A stretch of DNA of 64,000 nt from an uncultured virus (IMG/VR IMGVR_UViG_3300043105_000059) (taxonomy: Duplodnaviria; Heunggongvirae; Uroviricota; Caudoviricetes), in IMG/VR virus record IMGVR_UViG_3300043105_000059; one strand, written 5' to 3'. Position numbers and translations under genes: made by a program. The notes beneath the pieces are model-generated. The model did not search any database. It saw only the letters and a list, made by a program, of their open reading frames with translations, and was not told the origin of the DNA. Each line of letters starts with the position of its first letter. The first letter of the stretch is position 1. Shown here piece by piece: positions 17,801-52,030 of this stretch.

Positions 17801-20800
17801 TTAATGTAAGCCCCTTGACTATGCTCGCCTATAGTTTAATTAGGATGGGTAAAGAGTAGGGTATAGATGTAACACGTTACCAAGATGCTTTAAAATAGAA
17901 TTTTGAGGATTAGAATGGAGCCTCTCCAAAATCTCAAATGGCTGTAGGTTATCAAATGAATGATTTAATTAGTAATGCTGCCGATTCTTCCGGAATTCTT
18001 GACAATCCTCAATTATATAATGCTACATTAGATTTTATAAAAAACTCTCCTTATATTACAGTAGTACAAAGAAATCAACTAAAGAATACTTTGAATAAAG
18101 TATTAAATGGTTTAGATCCTGAAGGTGCTAATCATGATACCTCCGTGCAAAGAATACTGGATCTTCAAGCTGCTATTGATAATAACTAGAATTACTCACC
18201 TATTCAAGAATTTATTGATGAGTTTAGTCTTAATTTAAGGGGAAATACTCAACCTAAATTATCTGAATTAATCAGCAAAATAGATGCTTAGATTAATATG
18301 AAAGGTAATGAAGGAAGTATTGAGAGTTTTAGTTTTGATGATGAGGAAACTGAGAAACAATTAGACAATGCTTTAGGTACTATAGCTATGGTAAAAGCTG
18401 TAGTAAATGCAGCAAGAAATGATAAAGCTCGTCATGGTGATGTATTTGGTTATAATAATACAGTTAATGAACTTACTCCTGGATCTAAATTAGCTGAAAT
18501 TGATAGTAATGTAGCAGACACCATCTTACAAGAATTATCTTCCGAGGAAAATCGTCTTAACTATTATAAGAGAATTGTTGACTTAAACTCTAAGAATGTA
18601 TTAAGAACTCACGATAGAACTGGTGTAAAAGCAAAAGTTCTTTTATATAAAAAGACAAAAGAGAGATTTTCTGCATCTAATTGGCCTCCTTCTTCTTGGA
18701 ATTAGGATGCTAATCAAGAAATAAAAGACTCTTTTAATGATGATAGTTTCAAGTTACTTAATAAATTAGTAGCTGATGATACTTAGGCAAACTATAATTT
18801 AAATCCTCAAGATACTTTATAGTTAGAGCAAGAGTGGAAATTGCTTAATGAAAAGTTGCATAAATTCTTTATTGATAATTAGGCTAATATAGAAGACGAA
18901 AATAAATTAGCGGAACTTGCAGATATGCGAGTTACAGGTTTATATTAGTTAGATACTAGCATACTTAATCAACATTCTGAAGAAATATCCAACTCTTCTT
19001 GGTGGTGGTGGCTAGCATCAAGAGCTGCTATGGATGTAAATACTTATAAATAGTATGAGTTAAATACATTTAAGAGTAATGACTCTTTTGCACCTGTCCC
19101 TGGTTAGGAAATAGCTACAGAAATAGCTTTTTCTGCAATTACTAATAAGAAAATATTTAACTTATTTGGTAAAGCTTAGAATAAAGCTTTATAGGAATTT
19201 GTTAAAGGTCATGAGGATGAAAAACCTGGAGATCCTTTTTACGATTAGTACTTTCCTAATCGTGTTGATATGTTGTCAGAAATTGGTAGTGATTCTTCAA
19301 ACTCTATTAATTATGCAGCTACGGTTCTTGCGGAAGGTATTGCAGGTTCTGGAAAATCTACAGGATTTACCAAGCATTTAATAGACATGCTTGGAATGGA
19401 TGAAAACATTAAAAAGGAAGTTCTTGGTAATATCTGGTTTGTACATACTTCTAAAGCTCAAGCTTAGAATTTAGCTAAGAGTTTGTTTGGTGAAGAAGCT
19501 GCTAATTAGTTGGCAGATAATTGTTTTTCTCACCAATCCATAATGCAGCATATTGCAGGTACTAATGATAAAGGGCATACTTGGAATGAAACGTTTGATC
19601 CTACTACGGGAGATGTTATTATTAATCCTGATGATATAGTATAGGAATAGGGTAAGACCCTTCGATATAACTATGGTATTAAAACTGGGATAAAAGCACC
19701 TACTTTAATAATTACTGATGAGGTTAGTCACATGTCACAACCGTCACTTGGATTAATTAGTGATTTTGTAAATGAGACTGGTGGTGTGCATTTAACATTA
19801 GGAGATTTTGAGTAGTCAGGACTTAGGGGTATTGCCAAGGATTTAAAAATTGTAGACAATGCTGGAAATGTAGTGGGTACATCGGAAAATTACTCTTATC
19901 AATTAGATAATACTAATATAGTACATGTTCCAAAATTAGGACAATCATTACGTTCAAAAAATAAATTAAAAGATAATAACAATGCTAAATTTAGGGAGGT
20001 TAAGAGTCTAATACTACAGAATTAGGCACCAAGTACAGTTTTAAATTATCACGAAAGTTAGGAAGAAGGTTTAATTGGTGATAAAATAATCTATAAAAAT
20101 GCCATAGATTCTGATCCTAATGCGTTTGAGTAGTAGGTAGTAGACTTGTTAAAACGTACTAAAGCCTTAGGAAGTGATAAGAAACTTGGTTATATTTACG
20201 ATAAAGAATTTGATTCTAACGGTAATGAGGTTGAATCTACTACTACTAAAATTATAAAGAAACTAAATGAGTCCGAAGAATTTAAGGGTCTTGTGGATTT
20301 TAATAGTTCTTATGCTGCTTAGGGTAAGGAAAATCCATATTATGTAGTAAGTTTAAATAGGGATGTGTCTAAGGTACAAACTCCCGAATATTTAGCGGAT
20401 TTCTATACAGGATTAACTCGTGCAGAAGTTGGATCATTATTAGTACTTAATTAGGATATAGCTAACGCATTAAAAATTTCATCTTAGCATGTTGAGAAGG
20501 CTCCTAAATTTATCATTGGTGATAATGCTATTAAAGCTTATAAGGAACGTAAGTACAATTTATATAAAGAAGTTTATGGAGAACCAGAGGAAGGTAAAAA
20601 GCTTGTATTCTAGCAATACAAAGATCCTACTAGAACTATAATATCTCCTACAAACAATGCAGAACCAGAAGTTCCTGACGGAGAACCAGAAATTGGCACA
20701 ATAGTTCAGGATGGTGATGACGAAGAATGGGAAATCATTGGTTATGAGAAACAAAATAATGGTACTTATAAAGCTAAACTGAAAAATGTTAATACAGGAA

Positions 20801-23800
20801 AAGAAGTTACTATAACCACTGATGAACTGGATGATTATACTACAGTAGTTTCAAATACTGGATCTAATAGTGCAGGAGGTATTACGACTGTAAAAGGTAA
20901 TAGAAATGGTACAGAAGGTTTAACTAATAAAGGAGATGATGTGCAAATGATGCACCACTCTTTTAATGCTTATGAAACTAGTTTAGTATATGACCCAAAT
21001 ACAAAGACTTACAAGTTTAGTGAAAACTTCCTAGAAAATCGAAAAGATAATGTGATTGGTTTAGCTAGAGTTGTTAATGACATTACAACTTCTGATTAGG
21101 CAGCTAAATAGAAACTGTTAAGTCTGGATTCTACTGAGCTAAATGCCTTAAAGCAAGCTCACAAGCTTATATTTGATATTGCCAGAACTGGAACAAGTTC
21201 TGATGAAATCATAGACAGTATAAATGATGTTCTGCAAGTACGTTTTCAAGGTAAAAAGTTACCTGATGGAGCATTTGTAAGATTTGCTTACAAGTCCTGT
21301 CTACCTTACAAGGCTTTTATAGATGGTTCTGGAAAACCTGATACTACAAAAGTTAGCGCATATCATAATGAGAAGTTTGCGAAACCTTATGAAGAAAAAG
21401 TAGCACATAATGTTAATACTGATACTTAGAGTTTTTCTGATACTAATACCAGCACTATTAATATGATTGTTATTGATAAAGATGGTAAAGAACTATTTGA
21501 AATAACTTGTGCTACTGATACTAATCCAGTAACTTTAGCTTTAACTAAAGGCTTTGAAGCAGATGCTAGTGGGTAGGATATTAAAGCTTGGGTAACTAAA
21601 AGACGTGAAGAAATTTTGAATGATGCCAACATTGATAGTGATAAAAAGTTTTCGTAGTTAGTTGATGAGTTATATGCTGCTTTATTTAATCCTAACGAAT
21701 TAGGAAAGCATTCACAAGCTAAAAAACTTATTCACCAAATAGATTTATTCTGGGCACATCAGAAAATTATGATGGGTAATATAAAATTCCTAACTACTGA
21801 GGATGCTAATGGTAATAAAGATTGGTTAATTCCCGGACGTGATTGGGAATCTAGTGGTGTTATTATCAATGACTCCGAGAATATTTCTATGACTAATAAC
21901 TTACCTTATTATGCACAATATGGTGGAGAGTGGTTAAAATTTTCTGATATAGAGAGGGAAGGTGCTATATCCATGTGTGGCAAAGTTCTCATGGCTACAG
22001 CAAATACAAGAATAAATAAAAAGAATGGTGCCGTTGTAGAAATTAAAGCAGGAAAACCATTTGTAATTGTTTCTGATGATACCAATTCTTATAATAATCA
22101 ATTTACAACCCCTTAGTAGTGGATGGAAGCTTTGTATGATGAGAATGCAACTCATGTAACTGCTGTATACATTGAACCACCTTCTACGGACTTTGGTGGT
22201 TATATGCAATATCTTGTATAGTACTATGGCAATACAGCAACTACATCGGATCGTATTGGTACAGCTTCAACGTCTTATAGAATATTAAGAGAATTAATTA
22301 AATCTACAGAAGGTAAGAAGTTTTTACGAGAGCGTTTTGAAAAATTGTACCAATATAAACAACCTACACAAGTTGATGAAGGCTTGGCATCTTTAGAAAA
22401 AGTTTTAGACCAGTTGGATAGCTTAGAGGGTAAAGTTACTAGTAGCAATGAAAACGCTGTAGTTGATTTACTAAAGTCTAGAGTAGTTGATGAATACGCT
22501 ACTAAAGAATCTAGACCTAATTATATTACTAATATAGTTCGCTTGTATCCTAATACTACAATAGGAAGTTCTATTGATAGAGTATTGCGATTTGTAGTTT
22601 AGGGTTATTATCCAATTAATAAGGTTCCCGCTGATTTAGCTTTTGAAAAATTAAGTTCGGCTAATGCCCAGAATAATATAAAAACTATTGATGATTTAAT
22701 TAAATAGGGATCTACTTATCGTAGAGGTATATTTAGAAAAGTTAGTTATATACAGGCAAATACTGGCGTTCAGTATAAGGATTTCCGAGAAACTACATTG
22801 CCTATTAACGAGGCTTGGTTTAACGCAAGAATTGATACTGGTGCATGGAGAACAGTAGGTGATAGAGCTGTAGAATATCAATCCTAGAAAGATGCTATGT
22901 TACTTGGAGTAGGTAGAGCTAAAAAGATTGATTATACTGACCACGAAATGTATGTAAAAGAAGATATGAAATCATTAGCTGATCCACCTAAAGTAGTTAA
23001 AAAGCAAACTTCAATTTCTACAGTAGATTTATTTAAAAGTTTTGATATTAAAGGTAAGGATACAATAGAGTCTTTATCTAAAAAGAGTCGCACTTATTTA
23101 TTATAGAAATACATTGATACTAATTTATCTGGAGCTGGTATAACAGTTAATAACATTACTGCGGATAAGATAGATCCTGCTAAATTTAAAACTATGTTTG
23201 ATACAGCTTTAAACAATAAAGAAATATCTTATGTAGAAAATGGAACTATCTTAATTACTCCAGAGGATTTAAAACCAAATATTTTACGCACTAGTGAGAC
23301 ATTTAAAGGTTTCTTTGAAATTACTCCGGGTGTGTTGGGTTGTACTATAGAAGATTCTGCGGGTAATGAAACTAAATATAGCTTAGCCTTTAATATTGAA
23401 ATTAAAAATAATAAACATCATATAAAAGATATTGCTAGTACGCTTTATACCCCAACTACTAATCCACCATCAACAGGATTAAATTGGAATAGTGTTGATG
23501 ATGTTCGTTAGGCTATCATTACGAAATATGGTGCAAATACTAAGGTTACGAATGAGACAGCCACTTAGTTATATGCAAGATATACTGCGGCTACTAATAA
23601 TAGCGTATTAACGATAGACGATATAATTAATTCTACAGATGTATTGTATCAAAATCCTGACGGGTCTTAGGTATTATCTTCATTAGCAGACGTAGTCCAT
23701 AGTATTGAAGATAATGCTACTGATGATTACAAAAATGTTATGGACTATCTTAGAGATCCTTCTGGTAAGCTTTTTGGTTATGAGATAGCTTCTACTGATA

Positions 23801-24708
23801 TTGGTAAACCTCACAAGTACTATCAAATTAATAAATACGATGTTGATGCTTCTGGAAATCTAATATTAGATACTAGTGAAACCACGTTATAGGATTTTTA
23901 TAATGCTATAAATGAAGCATAGAATTTCCTCCAAACTAATCATATAACTAAGTATTCGGATACTGTTATTAGTCACATTACAGGTCTGGCTGCAAAAAAT
24001 TTTCATACCTCTGGTTTTAACTATAAATCTGAACTTGCTTTAGCTGTAGATTCTAGTGGTGAAAAATACTTAATATCTAAGTAGGATATTGTAGACAAAA
24101 TGAATATATCAGACTTTGGGTTTACTGAAGATAATTTTGCAGAACTCGATTTAGCTAATCATACTTATAAAGATGAGGATGGTAATGTTAAAACATTTAA
24201 TGGTGATTGGGTATTCACTCCTACAGGTGATGGTTCTTATAAGTTAGAAAATAAAACTATTAGTACTACTAAGACATTTATTGGTTTGGATGGTGTTGAG
24301 GTTGATCTTGAAAATTTAACTCCGGAAAATAGTATAATTTTAGATTCATTTGACTCATTTGGGGAGGGGTCTTAGCTCTCAGCGGACTTACAATTTCTCG
24401 GAATAACCAAGGGCTCTGGGCCTATCGCATTTAGTAACGACTTACTAGAAAGTATAGTTGCATCTATTAACGCGGCTAAACTTATTGATGTAAGTGATTC
24501 TATAAACAATGAGTTGAAATCTAAATTAAATTAGACTAAGTCTAATTTTGATAAACTTGTTAATAGGGCTAAGGGATTAAGCCCCACAGATACATCAATG
24601 ATTGCGATTCAAAATAGAATGAAAGAGTATATAAACTATTACAATTTTTTGAATGCTCTATTATATAAATTAGGGATAAACCCAGATGAAGGGACAAGAT
24701 GTAATTAA
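14842..24708 (+). CDS. Giant virion protein, about 3288 aa (TAG=Gln), containing a superfamily 1 helicase domain
   Basis: Many ORF-track fragments share one frame. SF1 motifs appear in order: I GIAGSGKS (19336), II IITDE (DE at 19717), III LGDFEQ (19798-19815), IV LGQSLRS (19936), V AAQGKE (20314), VI FYTGLTRA (20401). Confidence 0.85.
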
Positions 24709-24744
24709 CACTCTTTTACTAACATATTAAATTTTAAGTGATTT

Positions 24745-27700
24745 ATGGCATGTTCACTAGACATAAATGAAAAAGTTGATGCTTTTATAGAGATTTTAGA
24801 AAAATCAGAAGAGCCTGTAAAAAATGTACAGGCTCTTCTGACTACGTTTATTTAGAAAACATTTAGGACGGAAGAACTTAATCCTATTAAAGATGAAGTT
24901 ATTAGGGAGTTTAATTTAAGTAAAAGATCGGATCAAATATCAGATTATAGAGATTTATTTGGTAATGATGCAGTAGCAAATGCTATGGACTCTGTAAATG
25001 AGGAAATGGTTAATATTATTGTAGGAAAATATTTAAATCCAGAAGCCTATACTTAGGAAGATGATATTAAATCAAAAACAGATGAACTAGAGCATAGTTC
25101 AGAAAAGAAAGCTATCTTAAAAAATTCTAGTACATTTATCGATGATACTTATGGCGGACAATCATTAGCTAAAATGGATATGATGCAAAAGTTCCAATCT
25201 TTAATTGGAAATAGTACAATGTTCATGAAAGATTCTAATGGTGATGTCATAGAAATTGCTACTGGTAAATAGTTAAGCTAGAATTTATATCGTTTACAAC
25301 AAGAATTATATTCTGATATTATAAGAGATTTAAAAGAACTTCGAAAGGTAGATTTACCTGAAAATGTTTTTGATGGGTTTGAGTAGGTAAAAGCCATTAT
25401 GGATCAATACTATAATTGGAATCCTACCATCATTAATAATTCTAGAAGCCGTAACACCGCTCTCTTCCAAAAAAGCTATAGAACTTTTAATAACTACTTT
25501 ATATTAAGTCATTTTGATCAACTTCTACAATCTCAATGTCCTGGACTTGTAGATATAGACCAAAGATATTTTGGATAGCTTCGACAAATAGCTGATGGTA
25601 AATATTTTGCCCATAATAAGAATGAAAATTTGGGAACTAGTTGGGGAGATGATACAGAATTATCTGATGGTGTTGGGGAGTTAAATCAAAGTATGAAAAC
25701 CTTCTTAGGTAATCTTTGGTTATTTAGTAAGGATGGTACTAAAACTCGTTTACTCAAAGTACAAGAAATTGCAGATGCTTGGTGTGATTTAAAGAATCTT
25801 GTATTTCACCCAGAACTAAGATAGCTGGATGTTAATGGTAAAATAGTATGGGGATTTGCCAATACAACAGATGGTAGAAAGTTTATTAAAGAATATCTTA
25901 CCGATTCTGCTGGAAACGTACTTACAGTACATGACTTAGTAACTGATATGGTAGATGATCCTACTAAATTAGACATGTTGCTTAAACTAGCTACATCTGA
26001 TGTATTTGCAAAAAGAATGCAATTACCCATTACTAAACAGTTAATATATAAGTCTATGTACGCTTAGATGTGTGATATTAACTTAGGCGCTGGAATATAT
26101 CCTTAGAAACTTGACCTAGATGGTAATGTCTATCAAGCATTTCATAATAGCAAGGGACGAAATATAATTACAATCAATGATAAAACTCCCGGATACTATA
26201 ACCATCTACGTCAATTTTTAGATAATATTGAACGTATGAATATGAACCAATTACGTATGAAAGATACAGGTGAGTATGAAAATGTTCGATTAAGTTAGGG
26301 AGCTAAAGACGCAAACACATTATAGTATATAGGTAATATAGCTGCTACATATTCTGCATTATTAGGAAGTAAGCATGGTTTATACAGTAATGCAGAATCT
26401 GATTATTCTAATGAAATTAAATTAGGAACTATAACGATTGATCGTTCGGGATTATCACTGGAGAAACGTAGTGATAAGTATATTACCTTCACAGATGGTA
26501 AAGTTACTTTTAAAGTTGGAAGTAACTTAAAGGTTTCTATTAAATAGAAAAATGGTAACTTTACTAACTTTTCAGATTAGTCAACTTTAGCTGATGCCCA
26601 ATGGGACGTAATTAAAGAAATACTACAAATACAGGACTATCCTAAAGAAGCTTTTATAAACCAAAGCGCTTCTAATCTTATCACTGCAGAAACTTTGATA
26701 AGTCTTGCTGGAAATGTTATGTATAATTATGGAGTATCCAGTATATTACAAAATCGTAATGATCTTGATGATTTTAATATTGATGAGGAAGTAAAAGGAT
26801 ATTTTACTACTGAGGGTACTTATAAGTTAACTAAGGATAAGCAAGAATTACAACCATTTAATCCTAAAAATAATACCAAAATTAATAATCTAATGGATAC
26901 CATTGACTAGCTCAATGGTAAGATTAGAGATGCTGTTACAAAAGGAGCTGATGGTAAGATGATTAATACTATTACTACATCATAGTTGGCTTCTAAAGCT
27001 ACACAACAATGGCATCGTGATGCTAAACAATTGGGAGATGATTATGCTTGTAAAGATTTCTCTTTACATGATATATATAAAGGATTTGAAATAGCTCGTG
27101 ATGTAAAACAAAACCTTGATAGTAAGAAAGTAATTGAATTTAGTCCTGCTGAAAACTTTGCTTTTGGTTTTATTTCTGATTATGCAACTCCTATGAATGA
27201 TACGGATAAAACTATTAGAGTCCTACCATTAATTATTTCAGATAAGGAGCGCATTCTTAAAATAAAACTAGATCTAAATAAAAAAGTTTAGTTTAAGAAC
27301 TCTAAAGGATAGTCTGTAGAAGAACAACTTTGCAACCTAACTTAGGAAGATTTGTACGACTACATTAAATAGCAACTAGGAGGTTTTTATGAGCATTAGT
27401 ATAATCAAATAAAAGGGCGTTACGATAGATTAAAAAATTATGTCACCAATCCAGATGGTACTATTAATTTAGCACAATCTCAAACCTTTGCAAGTCAAAC
27501 TGAAAATTAGGATTTAAGAGAAATGCTCATAATGTTAGATGGTAATGATACATCTGGTGTAAATTATAATACTCTATTTACTGAAAATGGTATTCTTAAT
27601 TTTAAAGGAATTAATCAATTAATAGACTAGTTTATTTCAGACCACTCTGATGAAGCTCAAAATTTTGATATAGACGAAGAGGCTGTAAAGTTAGCAAGAA

Positions 27701-30700
27701 AATATGATTTAAATTATCCCACTACTTAGCTATTACTTAAAGGGGTTATTAATGAAATTAAATTAGAGGATGATACGACTTTAGAAAGACAAAAGATTAT
27801 AGACAAAATAATCAAAAGTCGTAATGATGATTTATAGGATCGAGCCATTGAAGCTGCTAAAAATCTAATTAAAGAATTACAATTAAGAGCGCAACTTAAA
27901 GGTGATTCAATTGATATTGTGGAAAATTCATTCTATAATATTGATAAAGGTCACTTTGTTCCTAATTATGGTTTAGTTGATCAACTATACCGTTGGGGTA
28001 AAATTGATTAGGTTGCGGCAGAAAGTATGTTACCTACTGGATTACTGGCAACTTCACATAGTTATGGTGCAGAAGCTGGTAAAGAGCATTTGAAATTCTT
28101 TAAAGCTAAATCATTCCAAGTTGTATCTGATATACTTCAAGAAAATGGATATATCAACTTATTTGCACCTGATGGCAAAAGAATTCCTGGAGCATTACGT
28201 AAGTTAGGAAACAAGGAAATTGCGGGGACATTAGATGCGAAAAACGGTTTAGGAAAATGGTCACAAGGTGGAAAACTAGCTTTAGCAGCTATTCGTTATA
28301 GAGAACTTTATGAAGGTGGTATTAAAGAGAAAGCACAACAAATTACAGACCTTAATCAATTAAGTGATATAGGACTTGTTTAGCAAGCTTTTAAATTTAT
28401 TAAGTATCTTAATTCTTATAAGTACGGTGTTGTAACGGGACTTACGATAGACGAAGCGGCAAAAAGTATTAGTGATAACTATTCTACTATGCGGGAATGC
28501 TATAGTTTAGATGATTATTTACGTAATCCTAAATTTAGTTTACTGACTTTAGAGAATGCTATTAATGACTACTTTAAATGGTAGGATATTGAACGTGGTA
28601 TAGCTAATTACAATTCTGATAATGGGAATGTAGATATGTATGCTGAGGTTCGCAAAAATGTTTTCGAGAACGATAAAATAGAAATCGAGAAACAGTACAA
28701 TAAGCGAATTGAGGATAGCAATACTAAATATGATAGTAATATTGCCAGCATAGATGAACAAATGGGGCTTATTACTAGTGTTGAAGAGTCTGAACGATCC
28801 GATGCTGAAAAAGAACGTCTTGTCGATTTAATTGCGGAAAAAGAGCAGTTAAAAGAAGCTAAAGCCGAAGCCGAAAAGAAATTAAAAGAATCACTTAAAG
28901 AAACAATTACTAAAGTAACTGACCGTTATAACAAAGTATTAGAGCAAGTTCCTGCTTACATAAAAGCTGTTTAGGCAAATCCTAATTTTGCCCATACCGC
29001 TGAAATAGTAATTAATCCTGATTTGGAAAAGTATAATGCTTTTAGTTTTCTGTATGGTCAAGAATATACTATAGCTACAGTAGGAACGCACTTAAACCAT
29101 CCTGGTATGAAAAATAAGGATGATTTAAAAGCTTTTGAAAGTCTTTCTTGGGCACAGCAAGTAAAACGTAATGTATCTTTAACCGCTGCTAAACATTTAT
29201 ATTCTTTAAACTCTTTAAATGGTTTTGGAACTTATTGTAAAATTGCACAGATAGTTTCTGAATCTGATGCAGTTTATAATCTTACAGGAGCATAGGATGA
29301 AATGCTTAATGATGATGGTGCTAACTACACTAATGGTGTTACTCACCGTCTTGAAAATTATTCATTAGGTAGTGACGCTGTAGGAGTTGATAAAAAGAAC
29401 TTTTTCCACATGGAAGATGGTGCTTCTGGTACTGGATTTATTGGCAAGAATGCAACTTTCGTAGGTACGAATTTACGTATCAGAAACTCTAAGGCCTATA
29501 GATTATAGAATTTCCAAATGCTTCGAGGAGCTGTAGGTTACTTAAATCCTTACTTAACTAATGGTGGTTTAAATATTACAGAAAGCTTTGAAACTTATTA
29601 CGATAGTAATACTAGAAAGTGGGAGTTCTCTAAAATGAACTACGAGGACTTTGATTATAAAATTCCCACGTCTTATAAGCCACATATTTAGTATGAAGTT
29701 TAGCTTGAGGATGGTTCTTGGACTGCAGCTAATGGGCTATTACAAGGTTATAATGTTCGTGTAATAGGAGATTCTATTAAATTTAAGGATGGTTATACAA
29801 CTTTTAAATTCTCTAATGTATCTTAGATTGATTCTACTGGAGAGGTTAAATCATTGCCTAATGCGGCAAGCTTTAATTTTAGAGTTAAATTGGATAATGT
29901 ACACGATATTTGGGAATTTTTTGGTGGTGCTTATTCTGGAAAAGCTAAAGAACAGGTTATAAATGGAGATTTGATATTAACAATGGATGAAAATAGTTAT
30001 GATGAATCTTCATTTGATTTAACTACATGGGTTGTAAATAATGTAGGAAAACGAAGAGAAGGTGTTGGTATGGATGTTAAAGTAGAATCACAAACGCAAG
30101 TAGACCAATACTTAAAAGATTCTATGATACATTATTTATCTTCCATTGAAACTATTAAATAGGGTTAGAATAAAATCAATAAGCGTTCTGATATACGAAA
30201 TGAAAACTATATTCCATTATTTATGGAAATGGATATGCACGATGCAGGAGTGCAATTAAATGCAGAACACCATTCCGATGATTCAGTTCTTTCCATGATG
30301 ACTTAGGTTTTAAATGCCTTAGGAGCTAGAGGTTATACTTCTTAGGAAGCAGATAAAACTTATCAAGCTTTGCAAGGTCTTACTAATGCTGCATTGTAGG
30401 AATACATTGATTATTCAAGAGCTGGTGATTCGCCACAAAAACGTCAACACTTAGAGAATTTCATAGCACATATAATTGGTGATACTATTCAAGCTAATAG
30501 TACTTTAGATGAAGGTACTTTAGCTGGTGCTTTAATGCACCAAGCATAGAAGTTATTAAGTCGTAATAAGAACTTTAAATTTGAAGAAGTTCGTTAGTAC
30601 TTACCTATTGATGATCCAGCCTTACTTAGAAATATGATTTCTAAATTAGCTTCTGGGTTAACAAAAAGATGTATTCGTGTTAAATTCCCAGGGTCTATGG

Positions 30701-33700
30701 ATGTCATGTCCCCGTCAAACTCTATCTATAGATTATATGACGGTAAAATGTTATCCGAGTATAATGGAGATTTAACAGCTTTAACAGAAGCTGATAAAAA
30801 GGCTCCTATATTAAAACCCCATGAAATAAAAATAGACAGAGTATATCATATAGAAGGTTGTCCCGGAGCTGATAGTAGAGGTTATATAAAAATTAATTAC
30901 CCTACCGATTACTGGCAAGTTCGTCGTTTCCTAGCAACTGCGGAAGGGCAAAAAGTAGAAGTCAGAGAAGTTCTTTCAGAAGGAAGAGAGCTTGCTTCGT
31001 TTGGTATAACTTTTGAAGCTATTGACGAAAATGGTCATAGGAATACTTATAATATGTGGGATTTAGCTACAGCTCGAGATATGTTTATTAAAGACAAGCT
31101 CGAATTGGAGAATGGAAATTCCGATTATAAGTAGAATCATGCACAAAGAATGCAAGATTTGCAAAATGCTTTATTTGCTTTAAGTGATAATCCAAATGTT
31201 AAAACCACTTAGGTTATTGATTATGATGCTAATGGTAATGTAATCTATAAAACAGTACGTATTGCAAAGGAAACTGTTAAGAAACAACCTTATGAAATTA
31301 TTATGTCTCAGCTTTATAAAACTACTTTTGGTTTAAGGGCTGGGGATTCTATAGGAAATATTATTAATGATAAGTTATTCTTCTTTAAGAGAGCTGTTGA
31401 GAATTGGGAGAATGATAAGAACAGACTTCCAGAAGAAGCTTATGATGTGCAACTAAAACAAATTAGTGGTAAGCACATTAATTTACTATATGATACAGAG
31501 TCTAATAATCCTGATGGTTTTGAGGAGTTACAATTTGATCCTTATATTGATTAGCAAGGTACTATATGGCTTACTAACAATAAAGGTGATAAAATAATGA
31601 AATTGTCTTCTAAAGATGATGTAGTTCTAAGTAATGGTTCTGGTGATATTATTATTAAAACCAAAGATTTAAAATGGTATTGTGATAATAGTAAATATGT
31701 AGACTTAACTATATCTTCTGGGCGTGATGAAAATACTCTACAAGAAATACTTGGTATATTAAGAGAATCTGATAGTAAGCAATTAAAGAGCCTGTTTAAC
31801 CGTCTTGATACTTTATGGGAGTCAAGAGATAGGAAAGAAGCTTTTGAAGACAAAACTCCAGAAGAGCAAGCAGAAGAAAGGGCTAAATTTGACCATAAGT
31901 TTATATCTGTAGGACGTTATAATTTTGAAAGCACTAAAAAAGCTTTACATAACTTTTTAAATAATCGTTATATAGATGATGAAATAAAGTATGAATTATT
32001 GGATTATGCTCTTAATAGTGATAAGGATACTTTTAATGAGGATAAGTTACGTGAAGATGTTGAATCTTACGGATTACGTGACAGTATTGCAGACCAACTT
32101 ATTAAAATGCGTAAAGGTCATATAGGTTCTATCTTTAGAAATTCTAAATATATAGGAACATCTTTCCAAAAATCTTTGGAAGTACTTGCAGCTCGTATTC
32201 CCGCACAATGTATGCAATCCTTTATGTCTATGAAGGTTGCTGGATTTGATACTAGTGGTTTGAATACAGCTTATGTAAGCCGTTTCTAGACTTGGTTACA
32301 AGGTTCTGACTACGATATAGACAAGGTTTCATTGCTTGGATTTAAATTTAGAAATGGGCACTTCATTACGTGGTCAAATTTCATGGATTTAACTTCTACA
32401 GCAACTCTTAAAGCTTCTGAAGAACTTTCTTATCCTACTAACCTAGCTGCAGAGGTTCTTGAAAATGATGCTATTAATAAAACAAGCCTAAATGAGGATG
32501 CTCTTGAAAATGTTAGACTTGATACTAGTATTGATAAAGAAAACCGAGAAGGGGTTAGAACTTTATATGTTCAAGTAGGAGCAGAAGAAGTACCTTTATT
32601 AGAAGTACGTGATGCCTTTAAATAGAATAAAATTAAAGAGTTTACTGATACTTATAATGATATTAAATCTGAATATGACGATATAAGTATAGAGAAGGGT
32701 GATGCAGAAGCAAAAACTTACTTAAAAAGTAAATATAAAGAAGTACTTGGTTAGGAAGCAGGTCGAAAATAGGTTAAAACTCTACTTAAAGAGTTAGAAG
32801 ACCATTATAAGTTCGTAGGGCAAAAGGAATAGGTAAAAGAAAATAAAAAAGCTGGAATTTTCACAATAAATCCTATAGCAGATGCTGAAACTCTTGCTAA
32901 TTACGAAACTCAAATTCAAAGAGTTGTTTATGGAGTTATCCCAACTGGTGGTGTAGTATCTATAAATGGTGCTGATAGTACAGTTATTAATGATATGTTA
33001 GTAAAGTATGGCTTTTCTCTTAACCAAAACGTACTAACATAGACTGGTGAGAATGTTTCTGTAGCTAAAGACTTCTATGATTATATTACACGTGAGGATT
33101 AGATTGCAGGAATTCCTGTCAGTGAGAATTTGGATTCTAGAATTATTATTAAAAATGAATCTGGTTACACCCTTAACTACTATCCTGGAGAATTTGCGGA
33201 TGAGAAAGTACAAGTTGCTAAAATTAAAGCCCTTGCTAAATTTATTGATGCTGTAAATAAATTTGGTGGTATTCCTAAACTATCTATTACGGAAGATTTA
33301 GACGAAGAAACTAAAGAAGCTTATGAGGAACATAATAATGCTTTATAGCAATTGATGGATGAAATCAATGAGCATAACTTGTATTTAAAAGATGGCAAAG
33401 ACTATAGTCAAGATGCTCTTTTAAACTTCGTATCTTCTAATATGTATAATGTGGGCACAAACCCTAGTAACCTTATCTAGGGTACACAATCCGTAGATGC
33501 TAAAGATGGTTCTGTAAATAGAATTAAAAAATTAGCTAACGAGGGCGACTACAAAACTAAGCTTAAACGCTATGATCCAGGTTCTATTACTAGCTTATGG
33601 AATATGGAAGCTTTAACTATTGGTGGTAAAAAGAATACTGGTATTGTTGCTGCCAATCTAAAAGTATTTGAAGGATTAACTCAATATACTAACATGCTTC

Positions 33701-36510
33701 TTAATGAGGGTACTCATGAAGAGTTACAAGACTTGCTTGCACATCGTAATATTGCTGGAAAGGATATTCATTTACTTGCAAATGTTTACCAGCAGAATAA
33801 ACATAATTTCACTACTCGTGAAATTTAGGAAGCTCTTGATGCTGTTGACCAAACTCTCGATGCTTACTTGGAATATTCTGGATTCTTGTCATTGTCTACC
33901 GACAATGCTAAAGACCCTACACTTGCCAAAATTAACGCTGGTGAGAAATTATTAGGTTTATACTTATGTGGTGTAGCAGTAGGTATTGATGTTCCCAGCT
34001 TAGTTAAAATATTAACATCTAAAGCAGCCGCAGAATCTGTAAAATTATTAACTAGTAATATGTTTAATAATGCACAAGGATTCTTTGATGTTAATGCTTT
34101 AGATCGGTATCTAGCATCTGGCCCAATTTAGGTGGTAGATGAGTTTAATGTTAGTATGCTTAACTAGCCAGTTCTTAAAGCATGGATAATAAGTGTTTGG
34201 AATAGAGAACACAAAAAGGCAGATTCCCAATTAAGTGCTAGTAGTAAAATAGGTAGAAAACACCTTTCTCATGCCATACAAAAGGATGGATGGCAAAAGT
34301 TTAATGACGCTTTAGTAGATTCTCTTAAAAATATTACAAAGGAAGTACATAAAGGTGATGATGCTTTAGAGGTAGCTGAATAGTTAGAAAATGGTAATCA
34401 AAATAATGATTCATCAGAAGTAAAGGAAGAGAGTGCAACTACTGAAAAAGCAAAAGAGAATCTTTGGGCTGTTTACAATCTTCTGAAAAAGGTTCAAACT
34501 TAGGTAAGAGATTTTGCTAAATCCTAGGAAACTATTAAAGATTGTTGGGTATAGTTACCTAATGGTAGATGGGTTCAAGCTTGGAGTCAAATTAGACGTT
34601 TAAATTAGGTAGCAAATGAATTTAAAAGATTCTCTCAAGTAGCTAAATTAAATTAGCAACTTCCTAATGCTATGGATGAGCAACTTGCTTGGATTCGTAA
34701 ATTTGAAAAAGGTATTGCATCACGAATTTCTGAAATAAGTAAGTAGGAGTTGGACAATCACCCCGAAATGTAGCAAGCTATAGACGAATTAGAATAGCTA
34801 AATAAAGAGTTATATGCTTAGATGATGCAATAGGGAATACTTTCAGGAGAATAGTTTGACCGTTTGAAATATTCCGTAAGTTTGAGTAAATTTGTAAATG
34901 ATGCAGAATACCAAAAAAAGATATGTAGTATCTATGGTAAGTTAAAGTATGTTGTAAATGTTTATGATGCAATGGCTAAACTTCCACATTACTTAGGATA
35001 TGCTAGAACTCTTGCAGCACTTAGTGAAACTATGGGAGAAACATCTAAAATATACCAAACTGTAAATTACATTTCTCAAAATGTTATAAAGAGTCTTGGT
35101 GATGAATAGCATCGTAAGAAAGAACTTACTCGTTTAATAGACTGGGTTAATGATTGTCTTACTAATGATTTCTTGTTAAATCGAGGAACTAATCTTACAA
35201 TTAAGTCTGGATCTAAGTATTATGAAAAAAGTTATGGTCTTACTACTGGTATAGACCCTACTTTAAAAACAGTTGGTGAGGGTGCTACTTCCACCATACA
35301 ATTAGGAACTTTGGAAGGCAATATGTCATTTAAATATATAATGGAAAATGAAGTATTGCCGGATTTAAAAGAGAAGTATCCTGCATTTGATTTAATAAGA
35401 GACTTAAATCAAATTAAGTTTGATAAAACTAATGATAGAAATACATTAGTAAAAATGGCAACTAAGTCTACTATGCTTCCTAGATCTGAACAAGAAATAC
35501 AAACTTTAGCTAAGTACAAGGAAGATCTCATAACTTTATCTAATATTAGGTTATCTCAATTTAACGGAGAAATTAATTTAGTAGATGCTTTATTTGCTTA
35601 CAATTTAATTGTAAATAAAGGTAAGGTATCTGGAAATTCTCTTACTAATTTGTTTGAGGATTATGCAATGAGTTAGGGTAAGTAGTAGACTGATGGGTAG
35701 CCTTCTGCTTTTATAGAAGATTATTATAATTCAAGACGAGTTCCAAACGAAAGCTTACTTGAAGAATTAGCATTTTCTGATAACTAGGTACAGAACTTCT
35801 TAATGGCTACAGCATAGTATGATCCTACTTATAAATCTAAAGCAGAGTATATCTACATACGAAATCCTTTTACTAGATAGTATGTACTAGCTCAGAAAAT
35901 AAACAAAGAGGAGATTAGAGCGCAATACACTGATGAGGATTTAGGTGTAGAAGATTACGGAATTGATGATGTTGCCGAAGATTATATTAATGAGGATTAT
36001 TCTGATTATGATGACGATGATTACGAAGGTTCAGACTCATCAAATTATAAGAATCAGCGTGCTTGGGAGGCAGGAGTTGAAGTATAGGGTTATAAAATAC
36101 TTGGAGTTTCTTCTACTGTGGACGCTTTTAATAATTTTGCAACAGCAATTTATGGAAAGTAGGAAGTCGAAAAAGTCTTTGATAATATAGAAATTAGTGA
36201 GGATGGTAAATAGATAAAATCTATTACTTATAAGTCTGGTGATGATCCAGACGCTCGCACTCTTACGTATGATGATTTATTTGAAGGTACTTCGGATATA
36301 AGATCTGAAAGACGTAAAGCCTTAGAAAAGGAATTAGGAATCAAAGCAAAAGATACTCCAGAATCTAAGCTAGAAAAAGTACTTATTAATTTTGGTTTAG
36401 TAACTAAAGATGCTGATGGTAACATACAACTAGTTTAGAATACTAATGCAAACCCTACAGTAACTTTAGGAGATGTTATAAAAATGATTAAAACAGGTAA
36501 ACCATGCTAA
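24745..36510 (+). CDS. Virion-packaged DNA-dependent RNA polymerase (crAss-type two-barrel single-chain RNAP), about 3921 aa (TAG=Gln)
   Basis: One frame joined by TAGs. RIPAQCMQS is followed by the catalytic GSDYDIDK (DYDID at 32308-32322, a variant of the crAss-type DFDID loop), and STDNAKDP occurs near 33895. Confidence 0.9.
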
Positions 36511-36511
36511 T

Positions 36512-37597
36512 ATGGCAGGATGTATGAATAAAAATGATAGAGGATACCAGTCGTTAAGTAGAATGGCTGGTATCCCTTCTATGGTATTAGACGTTTATTG
36601 TCAAAAGTATTTAGATTCATTTAATAGATTACCTAACTTAGATGAATTACCCCTTGTGGATTCATCTAAGCATTTAAATGAATCTTTAAAAACAAAATAG
36701 ATTGGAGATTCAAGTTTTGCTAGTAATGAAGCTATACAAAAAACTACAGGAGCACAGTCCTTAGGAGAAGCGCAAGTAAAGCTTAATAATACGTATAGAG
36801 ATTTACAAGTAAACTTAGTGGAAGTTACAGATAAATCATCTTTACTTGAAGTATAGCATAGACCTAGTGTATTTAAAGAACTTAATCAAGAATATACAGG
36901 GGAAAATTTTGATGTTCAATCTGATACTGACAAACGTGTAGTTCTGCGAAATATGCTTGGTAAACTAAAAGATTTTTATGGCATTAAAATTAATGAAGTT
37001 ACGTCTAAACAATTATGTGAAGGTGACTTTGCTAATATAATACCAGATGCTAAAACCGCTAAAGCCTTTATTTATAATAACGAAATATATATAAATACGG
37101 ATATTGCAGATATAGATGCACCTATACATGAATTAATGCACATATTTTTAGGTGGTATGCGCTATACTAATCCGACTATATATTTTAATTTAGTGTCTAA
37201 AGCATAGCAGTTTAAGAATTTACAAAGTCTAAGTAAGGTATATCAAGATAGAACTCAATCTGATTTTTTAGAAGAAGCTTTTGTTTCAGAGTTTTCTAAG
37301 CTTTGCGCTGGTATGCACAGTGAATTTGATTCTTGGTCTGCTGAGGATCTTAACCCGTTATTATATGAAGTCCGTAGAAATATGGACTCAGCTTTAATGG
37401 GTAATAAAAGTGTTAATAGTATTGATCCTAATGAACTTTTTAAAGCAAGTTTCTTAGATATTGCTATGCGCACAAAATCTCCTGAATTAAATAGAAGCGA
37501 TTTTAGTATTCTAAATCTCGCTGAATTACATAGACAGAATGCGAATATTAAATCTAAGATGCTAAAAGATGGTGACTTAGTTGAAAAATGTGATTAA
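36512..37597 (+). CDS. Zincin-like metallopeptidase domain virion protein, 361 aa (TAG=Gln)
   Basis: KAFIYNNEIYIN...PIHELMHIF (HExxH at 37127-37141) and a downstream EEAFV candidate third ligand. Confidence 0.8.
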
Positions 37598-37599
37598 GT

Positions 37600-40500
37600 A
37601 TGGCTTGTAAATTTATATATAAAGGCAATAGAGTTTTTAATTCTGAAATTGCACTTGATGAGTTTCTTATTAATAGTAAGAAGTATTAGGAAGGTTCTGA
37701 TATTGTATTTGAGTTAAGTACAATTTAGAAACAGCGGGGTGCTAGAATTAAACAACGTGGTAAGGCAGCTGATAAGTTAATTACTCATAATCCTGTAATA
37801 TTTGATACAGATTTATTCGAGGATTATGAAATGAATGAGTTCGGTTCTGATAACTATGGCGTTACATTCGCTCTTAAATAGTATGTAGATGCGGAAGGTC
37901 ACCCACTTTTTCCTATATTTAATCTGGAAAACTACTGGCAACATAAAATGCCAGACTGGTAGAAACAAGAATATTGGACTAAAGGTTATTAGGATGATAC
38001 AGGTGAAGTACATAAATGTGATAAGTACGAGTATCAAGCTGTTTGGGGAGATAAAGATCCTAATGATATTACAGCAGCTCCTACTAATGACTAGTTGGAA
38101 GTTGGTAAAAAAGTAATGGAGAGAGTTTGGCCTATGCAAGGTTTTATGGGTACTGGTGTACATAGAATGATTGCAGCTTATTGGAAATGCTAGACAGCTC
38201 ATAAAGGTAGGGCTAGTGCTACACAAGTTAAAGCAGAAATGACCAAAGCTCTAGATTTTCAATTAATAGGAAGTGGTAATAACAATCCTTTATTATCAGA
38301 ATTTAAAGGCATTAAATACTCAGATTTTCTTTCTGATAAAGTAGATGATACTTACTCAAAATGTAGAGCTATTCACGATGAACTTAATTCAAAGTTTTTA
38401 ACAGATGAGTAGCGTAAATCTGGTATGGAATTGTATTTCTTACCTGAAACCGCCATTACTACAGAAGTTGATGACTTTGAACATCCCGATAAGAAGAGAA
38501 ACTTATTGGGTAATGTAGACTTATTTGTAATTGATCCGTCTGGTAACATTCACATTATTGACTACAAAACTTCACCTAAAGAATATAATGAGTACAACTC
38601 AGCTAAAATTAGAACATTCTACTATTAGTTAGCTACCTATAGACGTTTGACAGAGCGTATGGGTTTTGCATTAGACCATAATTCTAATGTGTATGTAATA
38701 CCTATTAAGTTTGAAAACTTCTAGATTGATCCAGAACAAACTGATGTTACAAAGCTTTGTAAATTTGATAATCTTAAATTACGTGAGGGAAGTTCTGGTA
38801 TTTTAGAGCGTTTGGAAGTTAAGGCAAGTCTTAGTTCTACAGGTGTAAACTCCGATACTATTAATAGTAACTTGGATAAAATCATTCCTATTAAGAATAC
38901 TAAAATCATGGCTGATGGTGATATTCTGGATGATGTTAAAACTTAGATGAAAGCCTGGTTTCCAAGTTTCGGTAAGTACAATGAAATTACTAAAGAGTAT
39001 GTTGTCAAGATGCTTAAACGTAAAGGTCGTGATAAGATAAATCCGAACAGTTTGAAATATACTTATAAGGTTGGTAAGAAAACTGTAATTACTGATAGCT
39101 TTGAAGCTCTTGTAGATGGGGTATACTAGGAATATTAGAAGATGGAAGAACACGTTATGGATAGAACTTAGGGTGTTAAAACCATCTTACAAGAAGCTAT
39201 AAATAATAAGGAAAATGTAGTCATTGATACAGGATATGCTCATAGCTCTCGTAAATTTGCAAGAGAAAGTTATCTAGAAAATTTGTTAAACCCTTATACT
39301 ACTGGAGAATATGAAATCCTTGATGATTATAATGAAGCCACAGAACGTCTTGGAATAATATTACTTAAAAATATACATACCAATAAAATTGATGTATTAG
39401 TAGTAGATACTAGTAAACATGCTTTTGATGATGAAATAGCACTAGGTGGTACTGAGAATAGTCCAGGACGTAATAAGACTTTAACAGGAACTTTTATTTC
39501 TGATGTTACTGCAAGAAATAAACCTAATGAGCTAGTACTTGATAGTACTTATGGTAATATTAGAATGATGGAAGTTATGTAGGCTTTAAATAATATGTCT
39601 GCTTTATTTAATAGTGATTCCGCAGGAATGGAATCTACATTAGGAGAGATTAAAATGTTTAATCAATTTCATAATGATGGTTGGACAGCTTCTAATGAAC
39701 AACTTCTTTACAACTTTAAAGAATTACATAAGGCTAATAAAACAGAAGACTAGATTCATTTAGGTAAGGATATAAAAATGTGTAGTTAGCTCGATCTTAT
39801 TAAGCATAGGTGTAATGAGATTATGGCAAATCCAGAACATGATAGAAAATGGAATGGTATTCAAACTGCTATAGATAATACACAAAACTTTACAGTTAAT
39901 CCTATTATACTTAAATCTCAGCTAATCGGATTAGCACATGACATTGAAGAGAAATTTAAGTTAAAGAATGATACTAATGCTAGAAACTTGGAAGGTGATA
40001 AAGCAGAAGCATATAGTTTCTTAGCAAACTTATATTCTGCTATTGCAGAAATTGATGGTATTCATTTTAAATAGCAAATTAAAGACCATTCTGCTTTCTT
40101 AAATTAGTCTGGTGTAAAAAGAATTTTCAAAGAGGGTTGGTCTGGAAATAGTCTTGATAATCCAGGAATGCTTGATTCTGACACCCTTAATAAGATGGGT
40201 CAACGTCTTAATGAAGCCTACTAGCTGACTCGTGACGAGATCCAAAATATTTCAAAGAAGATTTATACATTGAGTAAAAAATTGAAGGAGGAAAACAACT
40301 TCGGATATTTGAAATCTCGAACTATCGGAAATGAAGCATCTATTTACAAAAATTTATATGATGATACTTATGAAGATGATTTAGTATTTAAAAACCCATT
40401 TGATTCTCACGGAGTAACATTGTCTGAAACTGAAAAGGAGTTTTTAAAGCAATCATTGCTTTTAATCAATCATAATCGTTATGGAGATGTAAATACTATG

Positions 40501-42567
40501 GATGACCTAGAATTAGCTATTATGCAGGATCCATATAAATATCTCCGAGTACCATTAACTGAGGGTACTAATGCTTCTAAAGTTGCATATAAAGGTATGT
40601 GGGAAACCATTAAGGAGAAGTTTAAAAACCTTATCCCTACAAAACTTAATATGCAAAGAATGTTTAAAGGTTTGCTGGTGGATGAAACTTTATTGGATAA
40701 CGAGGATGTTCGTAATAAGTATCAAAATAAGGATGCGGAACTTTGGGAAATGAATACTGCATTTGATGCTGGTGAAACTGAATAGGCTAGAAAATCCATG
40801 TTAGCTAATTATGGTAAGAATTATTTTGAGCATAATCTAGAATTACTTACCATGAAACATGCTTATGCTTATACATTAAAGAATAATATTAATAAAATAT
40901 TTCCACTATTTAAAGCATGTGCTTTACAACTAGAAATGGGTGGTGCTATAATGAATACTCGTTTCGCAGAAGACATTTAGTACTTACATGACTTTATTAC
41001 TAATAAAGTACTTAATATGTCTATCTAGGATCCTAAATGGAGAACTGCTTAGTACGTATGTGGTAACTTAATGTCTGGAGCTTCTAAACTAGCATTAGCT
41101 TTTAACCCAAAACAATTTTATCAAGCTATTGATGGTTTATGGAAAGATATTTCTTTAGTGATAAGACAAAATGAATACGATCAAGCTTTCAGTCAGTAGA
41201 ATATGAAAGATTCTTTCTGGTGGGTTTACAGAGATTTAACCCATAATTGGGGTGACGGTAAATCATTGGCTTAGGTTCTTAATGAATAGTATGGTATTAA
41301 TGATATGGATATGAATTCCTACATTGATAAAACTAAACCTAATCAATTTGGTATCTTTAATTTGGATAATGTAATGTTCCATTTCGCGTCACGTCCAGAC
41401 TTCTATAATAGAATGACTATTTTTGGAGCTCAGATGAGACATGATGGTTGCTTTGAAGCACACGACGAAGACGGTACATATCATTGGGAAAAAGACTTGC
41501 GCTATAATATCTATGCTAAATATTGTAAGGATGAAAGTGCTGTCCCAGCTTCTTTAAAAGCTGAATATAATAAGCAGAAAGCTCGTTATAAAGCTGCGGC
41601 TACACAATTTCAAGCAGAGGGTGCTAAATTTAAGAATTCTGATGGTGAAATGGAGGATTTTGTTGTAGACCTCTCTAATCCAAAGCCATTACCTAGAGCG
41701 TACACAGTTAAAGAAGCTGAAAGTATTAAATCTTTAGCAGATTTAATTTATGGATATTATTCTCATGAAAAGAAATCTATGATTCAATCAACGACTGCTG
41801 GAGCTTTATTTATGCAAATGAATACATTCTGGTCTTCTAAGAAAAACTAGTGGTTTTTACCAGGAGGAGTACGTATGTAGGGTACATATGAACATTATTC
41901 TGAAACTTAGGAAGATGGAACTAAAAAGTATTATTACCAAGATGAGAATGGTAATATTACAGATTAGGAAACGGATACACCATTCATGGTTTGGAAGGGT
42001 CGTTATTAGGAAGGAATCATGGTAACATTAGCTAATATTTTTAATGATACTTTCTATGGTGATGAAACTGGTAAGAAAGGCTTAGGTAATGCTATTGATA
42101 AGTATTGGAACGCAACTGATGAAAACCTTCGTAATGCTTATAGAAATAATTTAAAGTAGTTACTATATGATTTATTAATGTTTCTATTCTTAGGAATGCT
42201 TATTGCACCTGCTTTAGAGAATGCTGCGAAAGCTCATGCTAAAGAAGTGGGTAATGGTGACTTAGGTGATGCTATGATAAATAATGCTACGGTGAATTTA
42301 ACTTCTATGTTATCTACATCTACAGATGATTTTAACGCACTTAAATCTATTTTTGGTAGAGGTGTACAATGGACACCATTCTCTATATCTACACTTACAA
42401 ACTCTTATTAGAGAGTAAGTTCAGCTGTATCAGGTAATAGTGATTGGTATGATGCTATTGTTAAAATGTCCGCAGCAGGAAGAACATAGGAGAATATGTT
42501 TGATTACATAAAAATAAATACACTCGGTCGAAAGATTGGAGACAATGGAGTAGTAAAAGAGGATTGA
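37600..42567 (+). CDS. Large virion protein, about 1655 aa (TAG=Gln), with an N-proximal PD-(D/E)xK (RecB-like) nuclease domain
   Basis: GTGVH (38149), ETAI, GNVDL (38509), IIDYKTS (DYK at 38560) and QLATY (38626, Q encoded by TAG). Ends at TGA 42565-42567. Confidence 0.85.
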
Positions 42568-51797: not shown

Positions 51798-52030
51798 TTT
51801 ACTATTTTATAAGTTACATTTTCTTCATTCCAACCTTCTAAATCAGTTCCTGATATACCAATACCTCTAGACTGTAGAAACTTTATTAAAGTATTTATTA
51901 TGTCTTTAGGCTTTTGTATATTTTCAGAATATCTCTTTAAAAAGTCTTCATCCGATTCTCCTTCATTTTGTTCAAAATAAAGGGTTCTATTCATATTCAA
52001 GCTTACTTGAATTCCTTTATACATACTCAT
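51794..52030 (-). CDS. Hypothetical protein
   Basis: ATGA-coupled on both sides. Confidence 0.65.
   Translation of the reverse strand: MSMYKGIQVSLNMNRTLYFEQNEGESDEDFLKRYSENIQKPKDIINTLIKFLQSRGIGISGTDLEGWNEENVTYKIVK

Follow-up and report, generated by a model that had tools for sequence, protein, structure and literature searches.

No phages are more abundant in the human gut than the crassviruses, which have to pack and deliver enzymes totalling ~0.7-1 MDa, among them the RNA polymerase with which infection begins. A question about this cargo is raised by a 64,000-nucleotide (nt) stretch of DNA from an uncultured virus of the Caudoviricetes (IMG/VR record IMGVR_UViG_3300043105_000059; the whole stretch is hereafter the window). 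Why should four consecutive late-gene proteins carry a cysteine (Cys) at all six of their inner termini (6/6), that is, wherever one protein faces the next in gene order, and at neither of the two outer termini (0/2)? An earlier reading of the letters alone, hereafter the original prediction, proposed that the C-terminal Cys of each protein pairs with the N-terminal Cys of its successor. From comparison with related and distant loci, we consider it likely that intermolecular bonds, most probably disulfides, re-join at these ends the pieces of a split cargo polyprotein.

Cysteines at the facing ends of four consecutive proteins

Under genetic code table 11 the + strand block at 565-42567 is fragmented into small open reading frames (ORFs), while reading TAG as glutamine (TAG=Q) converts it into a run of large late genes; with TGA read as tryptophan (TGA=W) the block stays closed. 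The TAG=Q recoding is limited to this late + strand block of the window, and the GC skew flips sign near 42 kb, coinciding with the switch of gene strand. No tRNA genes were found in the window by ARAGORN, so that a suppressor tRNA, if the phage has one, is located outside it. In-frame TAG codons number 2-79 per gene in the late block and 0-3 per gene in the early genes (42629-64000, - strand). With TAG=Q, the four proteins and their terminal Cys codons are as follows (aa, amino acids).

14842..24708, + strand: first chain member, 3288 aa (TAG=Q), with a Walker A motif (GIAGSGKS) at residue 1499; begins MAKENDLF and ends EGTRCN
24700..24702, + strand: TGT codon of the penultimate residue of the 3288-aa protein, the Cys on the upstream side of junction 1
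24745..36510, + strand: virion RNA polymerase-like protein, 3921 aa, with DYDID at residue 2522; begins MACSLD and ends TGKPC
24751..24753, + strand: TGT codon of Cys3 in the RNA polymerase, on the downstream side of junction 1
36505..36507, + strand: TGC codon of the Cys that ends the RNA polymerase, on the upstream side of junction 2
36512..37597, + strand: HExxH zincin-like protein, 361 aa, with HELMH at residue 206; begins MAGCMN and ends VEKCD
36521..36523, + strand: TGT codon of Cys4 in the zincin-like protein, on the downstream side of junction 2
37589..37591, + strand: TGT codon of the penultimate residue of the zincin-like protein, the Cys on the upstream side of junction 3
37600..42567, + strand: final member of the chain, 1655 aa, in which residues 183-360 form a PD-(D/E)XK nuclease domain; begins MACKF and ends GVVKED, C-terminus without Cys
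37606..37608, + strand: TGT codon of Cys3 in the nuclease-domain protein, on the downstream side of junction 3

All six Cys codons start where the original prediction had put them, the two outer termini (MAKENDLF and GVVKED) lack Cys as it had noted, and the summed length (3288+3921+361+1655 = 9225 residues) agrees with its figure of about 9200. It had also called Cys scarce in these proteins, and the totals are indeed 8 (3288 aa), 17 (3921 aa), 5 (361 aa) and 11 (1655 aa), a frequency of 0.24-1.39 %. When each protein's own Cys frequency is used and a Cys is counted in the last 4 residues or at residues 2-6, the joint chance of the six inner Cys in the window is 4.3e-10. Among the 37 other window ORFs of at least 80 aa, a Cys occurs within the first 6 residues in 4 and within the last 4 residues in 6, and nearly all ORFs with such a near-terminal Cys are Cys-rich early genes.

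Searches of Pfam and PHROGs with the four chain proteins gave no match except the nuclease domain of the 1655-aa protein (PF12705, E 4.9e-7, with 30.4 bits where the curated cut-off is 22), which precomputed annotation also places in nearly all of the 120 homologues of this protein. The label of helicase that the 3288-aa protein had received was thus not confirmed; the protein occupies the position of g067 of the crassvirus phi14:2 and of gp47 of the crassvirus crAss001. The 3921-aa protein gave the sole BLAST match to phi14:2, a weak one to g066 (E 0.008), which spans the catalytic motif and aligns DYDID with DFDID. In addition to this virion RNA polymerase, the phage encodes a complete sigma-70 family factor (regions 1.2, 2, 3 and 4) at 52027-52887 on the - strand, among early/middle genes. 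As for the 361-aa zincin-like protein, which has no Pfam match, residues C4, H206, E207, H210 and C360 are invariant in its alignments (22 and 42 sequences), as are D249, E252 and E253 (L004 numbering) in the alignment of 42. In an AlphaFold2 model of it, with a predicted local distance difference test score (pLDDT) of 89.5, the two Cys lie outside the fold, in tails of coil formed by residues 1-9 and 353-361. With this model Foldseek returned nothing at E <= 1e-3, and the best VIA-align match scored Z 4.4, minimal zincins scoring Z 3.1 and 2.9.

The four genes would represent pieces of the crassvirus cargo module, matching gp67-gp66-gp65 of phi14:2 and gp47-gp50-gp49 of crAss001. According to the available parts of the respective sources, the phi14:2 proteins are present in particles and are fused into one polyprotein in some phages (bioRxiv 10.1101/2020.03.07.982082), and the crAss001 proteins were detected in particles by mass spectrometry (PMC10172136). 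Like these modules, as far as those sources describe them, that of the window has a giant protein with a DxDxD motif, an HExxH motif in the protein that follows, and a position after the tail genes. It differs in consisting of four pieces rather than three, with the zincin separate from the nuclease-domain protein, and its proteins share almost no detectable sequence with either module (blastp of the window proteins against crAss001 gp45-gp50 gave no match at E <= 1e-3). Mass spectrometry of phi14:2 and crAss001 virions, together with gene position, suggests that the chain proteins are packed in the capsid and ejected.

Conservation, fusions and splits of the cargo genes

A search with the 361-aa protein recovered 30 relatives of 29-98 % identity. 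A Cys occurs within the first five residues in 29 of them, the 30th having it after a second Met, and within the last three residues in 28/30, the remaining two being truncated. In a broader set of zincin representatives (148 listed, clustered at 50 % identity) Cys is present at 125 of 126 informative N-ends and at all 133 informative C-ends, and the terminal pair is the only Cys of the protein in 38/114 complete representatives.

Viral contigs yielded 74 loci, from which L074 was excluded as a weak partial match; the census therefore comprises the window and 73 loci, in 28 lineages at 70 % zincin identity, L001 being 99 % identical to the window and hence not independent. In 74/74 of these, Cys is found at the C-end of the RNA polymerase (last 4 residues), at both ends of the zincin and at the N-end of the nuclease protein, and in 0/74 is it found in the last 4 residues at the C-end of the nuclease protein. 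This count stands after six start corrections, namely GTG starts (L034, L043, L054), a second ATG (L059), L052 and L029. The 120 homologues of the last protein give the same picture, with a Cys at residue 3-5 in 119 (the exception is a truncated gene call) and in the last four residues in 1/120; its C3 is invariant in 38 aligned sequences. Junction 1 has the Cys pair in 15/15 lineages read, the first protein's Cys lying 1-11 residues from its C-end and that of the RNA polymerase at residue 3-5, and the N-end of the first protein lacks Cys in all five relatives read upstream (0/5, L080-L084). Apparent exceptions were in every case traced to start calling (GTG starts, second ATGs, truncated calls). 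The conservation across junctions that the original prediction anticipated was therefore found at all three of them.

The original prediction had also listed one unpaired case, which does exist in the window:

7661..12976, + strand: 1771-aa virion protein, outside the chain, ending MMCSK

A Cys near this C-terminus occurs in 0/5 relatives (the closest ends KLMMQK), and the 620-aa protein that follows has no N-terminal Cys in any of 5 relatives. The 1771-aa protein was thus rejected as a chain member, and its Cys, not being conserved, is best taken as chance.

The terminal Cys are surrounded by short, loosely conserved motifs, such as MxKC and MxC-aromatic at N-ends and NPC or ExC as the last residues. 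Such motifs, and the fact that a protease domain belongs to the module, would suit a terminus-specific role without pairing, for instance as a packaging or processing signal for the zincin, or as a site of lipid or other modification. The motifs are however absent from the outer termini and from crAss001 gp45 and gp46, and the N- and C-terminal ones would need two unrelated roles that always co-occur over a junction, which makes this explanation very improbable.

Natural fusions offer a more direct view of the junctions. Among the proteins from the search for zincin representatives, the zincin is fused to the nuclease protein in P0114 and P0158, and the RNA polymerase to the zincin in P0173. 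In all three (3/3), the alignment runs seamlessly over the junction and both junction Cys are replaced, while Cys is retained at the remaining inner ends. The disappearance of the pair upon fusion had been proposed as a check of the pairing, as had its appearance upon splitting. On the latter point, loci L061-L071 carry an additional 333-aa gene between the polymerase and a 549-aa zincin; its only Cys are residues 6 and 332, and in the neighbouring 549-aa zincin no residue other than 3 and 548 is a Cys. A 977-aa form (L072, L073) likewise has Cys only at 6 and 976. None of the 333-aa, 549-aa and 977-aa forms has a Pfam match. Given that the ends are contiguous in fused forms, the split ends should lie side by side, if assembly is alike.

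A search for further fusions among longer zincin relatives (663-2000 aa) gave 6 proteins and no new fusion. Five of them (P0299-P0303, 689-790 aa) have an ART-PolyVal ADP-ribosyltransferase domain inserted mid-protein, one with an HD domain also (precomputed Pfam; P0299 and P0302 were re-scanned), and keep Cys only or almost only at both ends. P0304 has no family match.

Other interruptions of the polymerase gene were considered as junctions and rejected. In L024, L043 and L049 it is broken within the catalytic motif, after WLQGSDY, with no Cys at the break. The gap in L024 (5432-6520, ~1.1 kb) has a weak match to the 3' end of a group I intron model (E 0.0064, below the Rfam gathering score) that stops just before the second polymerase piece, and these breaks are probably introns rather than protein ends. 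The split in L026 looks like a frameshift, with overlapping frames, and the gene is intact in its relative L022.

Distant crassviruses and a cyanophage

The same arrangement is found in cargo modules far removed from that of the window. In phi14:2, the sole Cys of g067 (1797 aa) is its last residue, the two Cys of g066 (2180 aa, the structurally solved polymerase) are residues 3 and 2179, and g065 (1421 aa), which has the zincin at its N-end, contains a single Cys at residue 3; these four Cys in 5398 residues all lie at the two junctions (chance ~2e-12). In crAss001, the single Cys of gp47 is residue 2339 of 2341, gp50 (2412 residues) has one internal Cys in addition to Cys5 and Cys2404, and the single Cys of gp49 is residue 5. 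With a single Cys each, gp47, gp49, g067 and g065 can form no intramolecular bond. Dulem virus 41, cr106_1 and DAC15 show the same pattern, and p-crAssphage shows it at one junction, where gp45 ends SFSCM and gp44 starts MSC (the sequence of the NC_024711 phage was taken from BK010471). BLAST pairs g067 with gp47, g066 with gp50 and g065 with gp49 between phi14:2 and crAss001, and the zincin and last protein of the window would therefore correspond to a split g065.

These phages also bear on the possibility that the Cys codons merely accompany a nucleotide signal, such as one for translational coupling, or arise by chance. Spacing at the junctions is indeed tight (-11 to +11 nt). Junction 1 of the window nevertheless has a spacer of 36 nt, and other tight gene junctions in the window have no Cys. 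Codon choice at the termini (TGT:TGC 92:18) is the same as that for internal Cys (179:37). In crAss001, gp47 is encoded on one strand and gp50 and gp49 on the other, and in cr106_1 and DAC15 the gp47-like gene and its presumed partner are separated in the same way; the C-terminal Cys is kept in all three, which excludes a DNA signal at the gene junction. As for chance, the estimates for the window (4e-10) and phi14:2 (2e-12) leave it next to no room. As far as sequence can tell, both explanations are refuted, their probability being negligible, and the terminal Cys is to be regarded as a feature of the proteins, not of the DNA.

A bond of the proposed kind has been observed in one phage. In the pre-ejectosome of cyanophage A4, gp27 reaches into gp26 with its C-terminal helix, which a Cys1715-Cys5 disulfide seen by cryo-electron microscopy (cryo-EM) stabilises, as stated in the available part of the report (PMC12002296). 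The original prediction had known of no such description; none was found in print for crassviruses. The sequences of A4 (Anabaena phage A-4L) agree with the bond, since residue 1715 is the only Cys of gp27 (1717 aa, ending DNPCQF) and residue 5 the only one of gp26 (1114 aa, beginning MSKHC). As in the window, a near-C-end Cys upstream faces a Cys at residue ~3-5 of the next protein, both proteins being otherwise Cys-poor. The two A4 proteins are likewise products of consecutive genes, and they are capsid-internal ejection proteins, as the chain proteins of the window are predicted to be. The A4 case differs in that, by the same available text, no RNA polymerase is involved and there is one bond in one phage, without a rule relating it to gene fission or fusion. 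Comparison of gp27 and gp26 with crassvirus proteins gave no blastp match better than E 0.17 and no phmmer match, so the likeness is one of signature and not of detectable ancestry.

The N-terminal Cys motif is alike in several distant phages, for example MSTCYTP (L084), MSKTCYTP (DAC15), MSKRC (crAss001 gp50) and MSKHC (A4 gp26). A basic residue beside the Cys might raise the reactivity of its thiol.

Nature of the proposed link and its meaning

The comparisons above establish the pattern itself and show that it is conserved, that it is coupled to the fission and fusion of genes, and that it does not depend on the genes being adjacent. The most probable account of these findings is as follows. 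The cargo module, which other phages encode as fewer, larger or fully fused proteins, would acquire a pair of Cys at each cut of the polyprotein, one shortly ahead of the C-terminus thus created and one at residue 3-5 of the downstream piece. The flexible tails that carry them would adjoin in the assembled complex, as the same stretches are contiguous in fused forms, and their thiols would form an intermolecular bond, most probably a disulfide. In the window, the 3288-aa protein, the RNA polymerase, the zincin and the nuclease protein would be re-joined in this order (~9225 residues). The purpose of the links would presumably be co-packaging at a fixed 1:1 stoichiometry, co-ejection, and release or loosening in the reducing cytoplasm of the host. 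The pairing put forward in the original prediction thus held in every comparison made (conservation, fusions, insertion, distant crassviruses), and the bond itself is predicted from sequence.

Several observations weigh against this account. Besides the terminal ones, the four window proteins have 7, 15, 3 and 10 internal Cys, so that, unlike in phi14:2, pairing is not forced by a lack of alternatives. The upstream Cys of junction 1 often lies 7-11 residues short of the C-end, with a hydrophobic tail behind it, as in a terminal CPITIKIKL. A Cys 9 residues from the C-end of the nuclease protein (LNCINQSLQED) occurs in 10/74 loci, belonging to 2 lineages (L034, L054); in L034 the next ORF read has no N-terminal Cys. 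The hosts are gut anaerobes with a reducing cytoplasm, which makes the site and time of disulfide formation problematic, and no thiol oxidase or thioredoxin genes were found in the window's part of the genome. The A4 proteins form, in the part of the report available, one junction in a five-copy ring and not a linear thread (PMC12002296), and in the available text on crAss001 the cargo is unresolved in the cryo-EM maps (PMC10172136). crAss002 gp33 conforms only if its second ATG is the start; the annotated start (MVLDYS; L092 11621-11720) is probably 32 codons too early, and residue 33 begins MSCTPSN, resembling MSCGNIK of p-crAssphage gp44. Lastly, in C1-like cargo, p-crAssphage gp47 (L091 979-3552, ending QSCR) and crAss002 gp30 (L092 926-2599, ending FRCGGKKKIA) each have a single near-C-end Cys with no partner Cys visible in the next protein; crAss001 gp45, unlike these two, has no near-C-end Cys.

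Unpartnered Cys of the C1-like type would be expected if the terminal Cys bonded elsewhere, that is, in homodimers or to a capsid, portal or tail protein. The crAss001 particle has, as its available text describes, many structural disulfides, including intermolecular ones in the tail and at the portal vertex, with tail hub and ring proteins and a gp57 dimer among the cases (PMC10172136). Similar to the proposed links in joining different proteins and in lying inside the particle of a Bacteroides crassvirus, these differ in joining, by that account, ordered tail or capsid subunits through internal residues and not cargo termini. Bonding elsewhere would leave unexplained why Cys appear at fission-made ends only and never at outer ends, and why they are gained and lost in pairs across junctions; also, the A4 structure, as far as the available part of the report goes, is a heterotypic link (PMC12002296). 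We regard this alternative as improbable.

Somewhat less improbable, though still unlikely, is a shared metal ion (a Zn or Fe clasp) bound by the paired Cys, or non-covalent tail docking aided by them, with no disulfide. A nearly invariant Glu (E358) stands two residues before the C-terminal Cys of the zincin, acidic residues being common there, and a clasp would form under reducing, anoxic conditions where a disulfide might not. The comparative data fit a clasp and a disulfide equally. A clasp would however have one Cys per side with no conserved His or second Cys nearby, and the identical signature in A4 was observed as a disulfide, according to the part of that report available (PMC12002296). 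Our best guess therefore favours the disulfide over the clasp.

Re-joining of split-gene products with Cys as the key junction residue recalls split inteins, which require fragments of ~100 and ~35 residues at the junction. Since the Cys are 0-11 residues from the ends there is no room for such fragments, and the chain proteins have no Pfam match to intein families; a split intein was thus rejected. The giant virion RNA polymerase of N4-like phages and the ejection proteins of T7 and P22 are also large, stored in the capsid, and ejected before or with the DNA; to our knowledge no covalent link among them has been described.

No report of terminal-Cys links in crassvirus cargo was found in the literature, with incomplete coverage of subscription journals. 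The words 'cysteine' and 'disulfide' are absent from the text available of the phi14:2 preprint (bioRxiv 10.1101/2020.03.07.982082), and in the available main text of the crAss001 paper (PMC10172136) 'cysteine' is absent and no cargo-cargo link is reported. What was already known would then be the single A4 junction, and what appears new is a multi-junction, order-wide rule tied to gene fission and fusion.

A bolder extension, which we hold to be doubtful, is that terminal Cys constitute a general joining code of podophage cargo, common to crassviruses and cyanophage A4 by descent or convergence, in which every cut in a giant ejection polyprotein would receive a Cys pair to re-join the pieces covalently. 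A thread of ~1 MDa (~9225 residues of NTPase-like protein, RNA polymerase, protease and nuclease) would then exit the tail in gene order, and its disulfides would time the release by redox state, opening in the reducing cytoplasm of the host to set active enzymes free.

At the level of the rule itself, sequence would predict which cargo ends touch, in what order the proteins lie and that they occur at 1:1 stoichiometry. The predicted pairs are Cys1797-Cys3 and Cys2179-Cys3 in phi14:2, and Cys2339-Cys5 and Cys2404-Cys5 in crAss001, both of them culturable phages. The rule would explain how these genes have split and fused freely in evolution without loss of function, and, in recoded crass-like genomes, may serve as a marker of where genes truly begin and end. 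It would also connect the cargo of crassviruses to the sole case seen by experiment, that of cyanophage A4.

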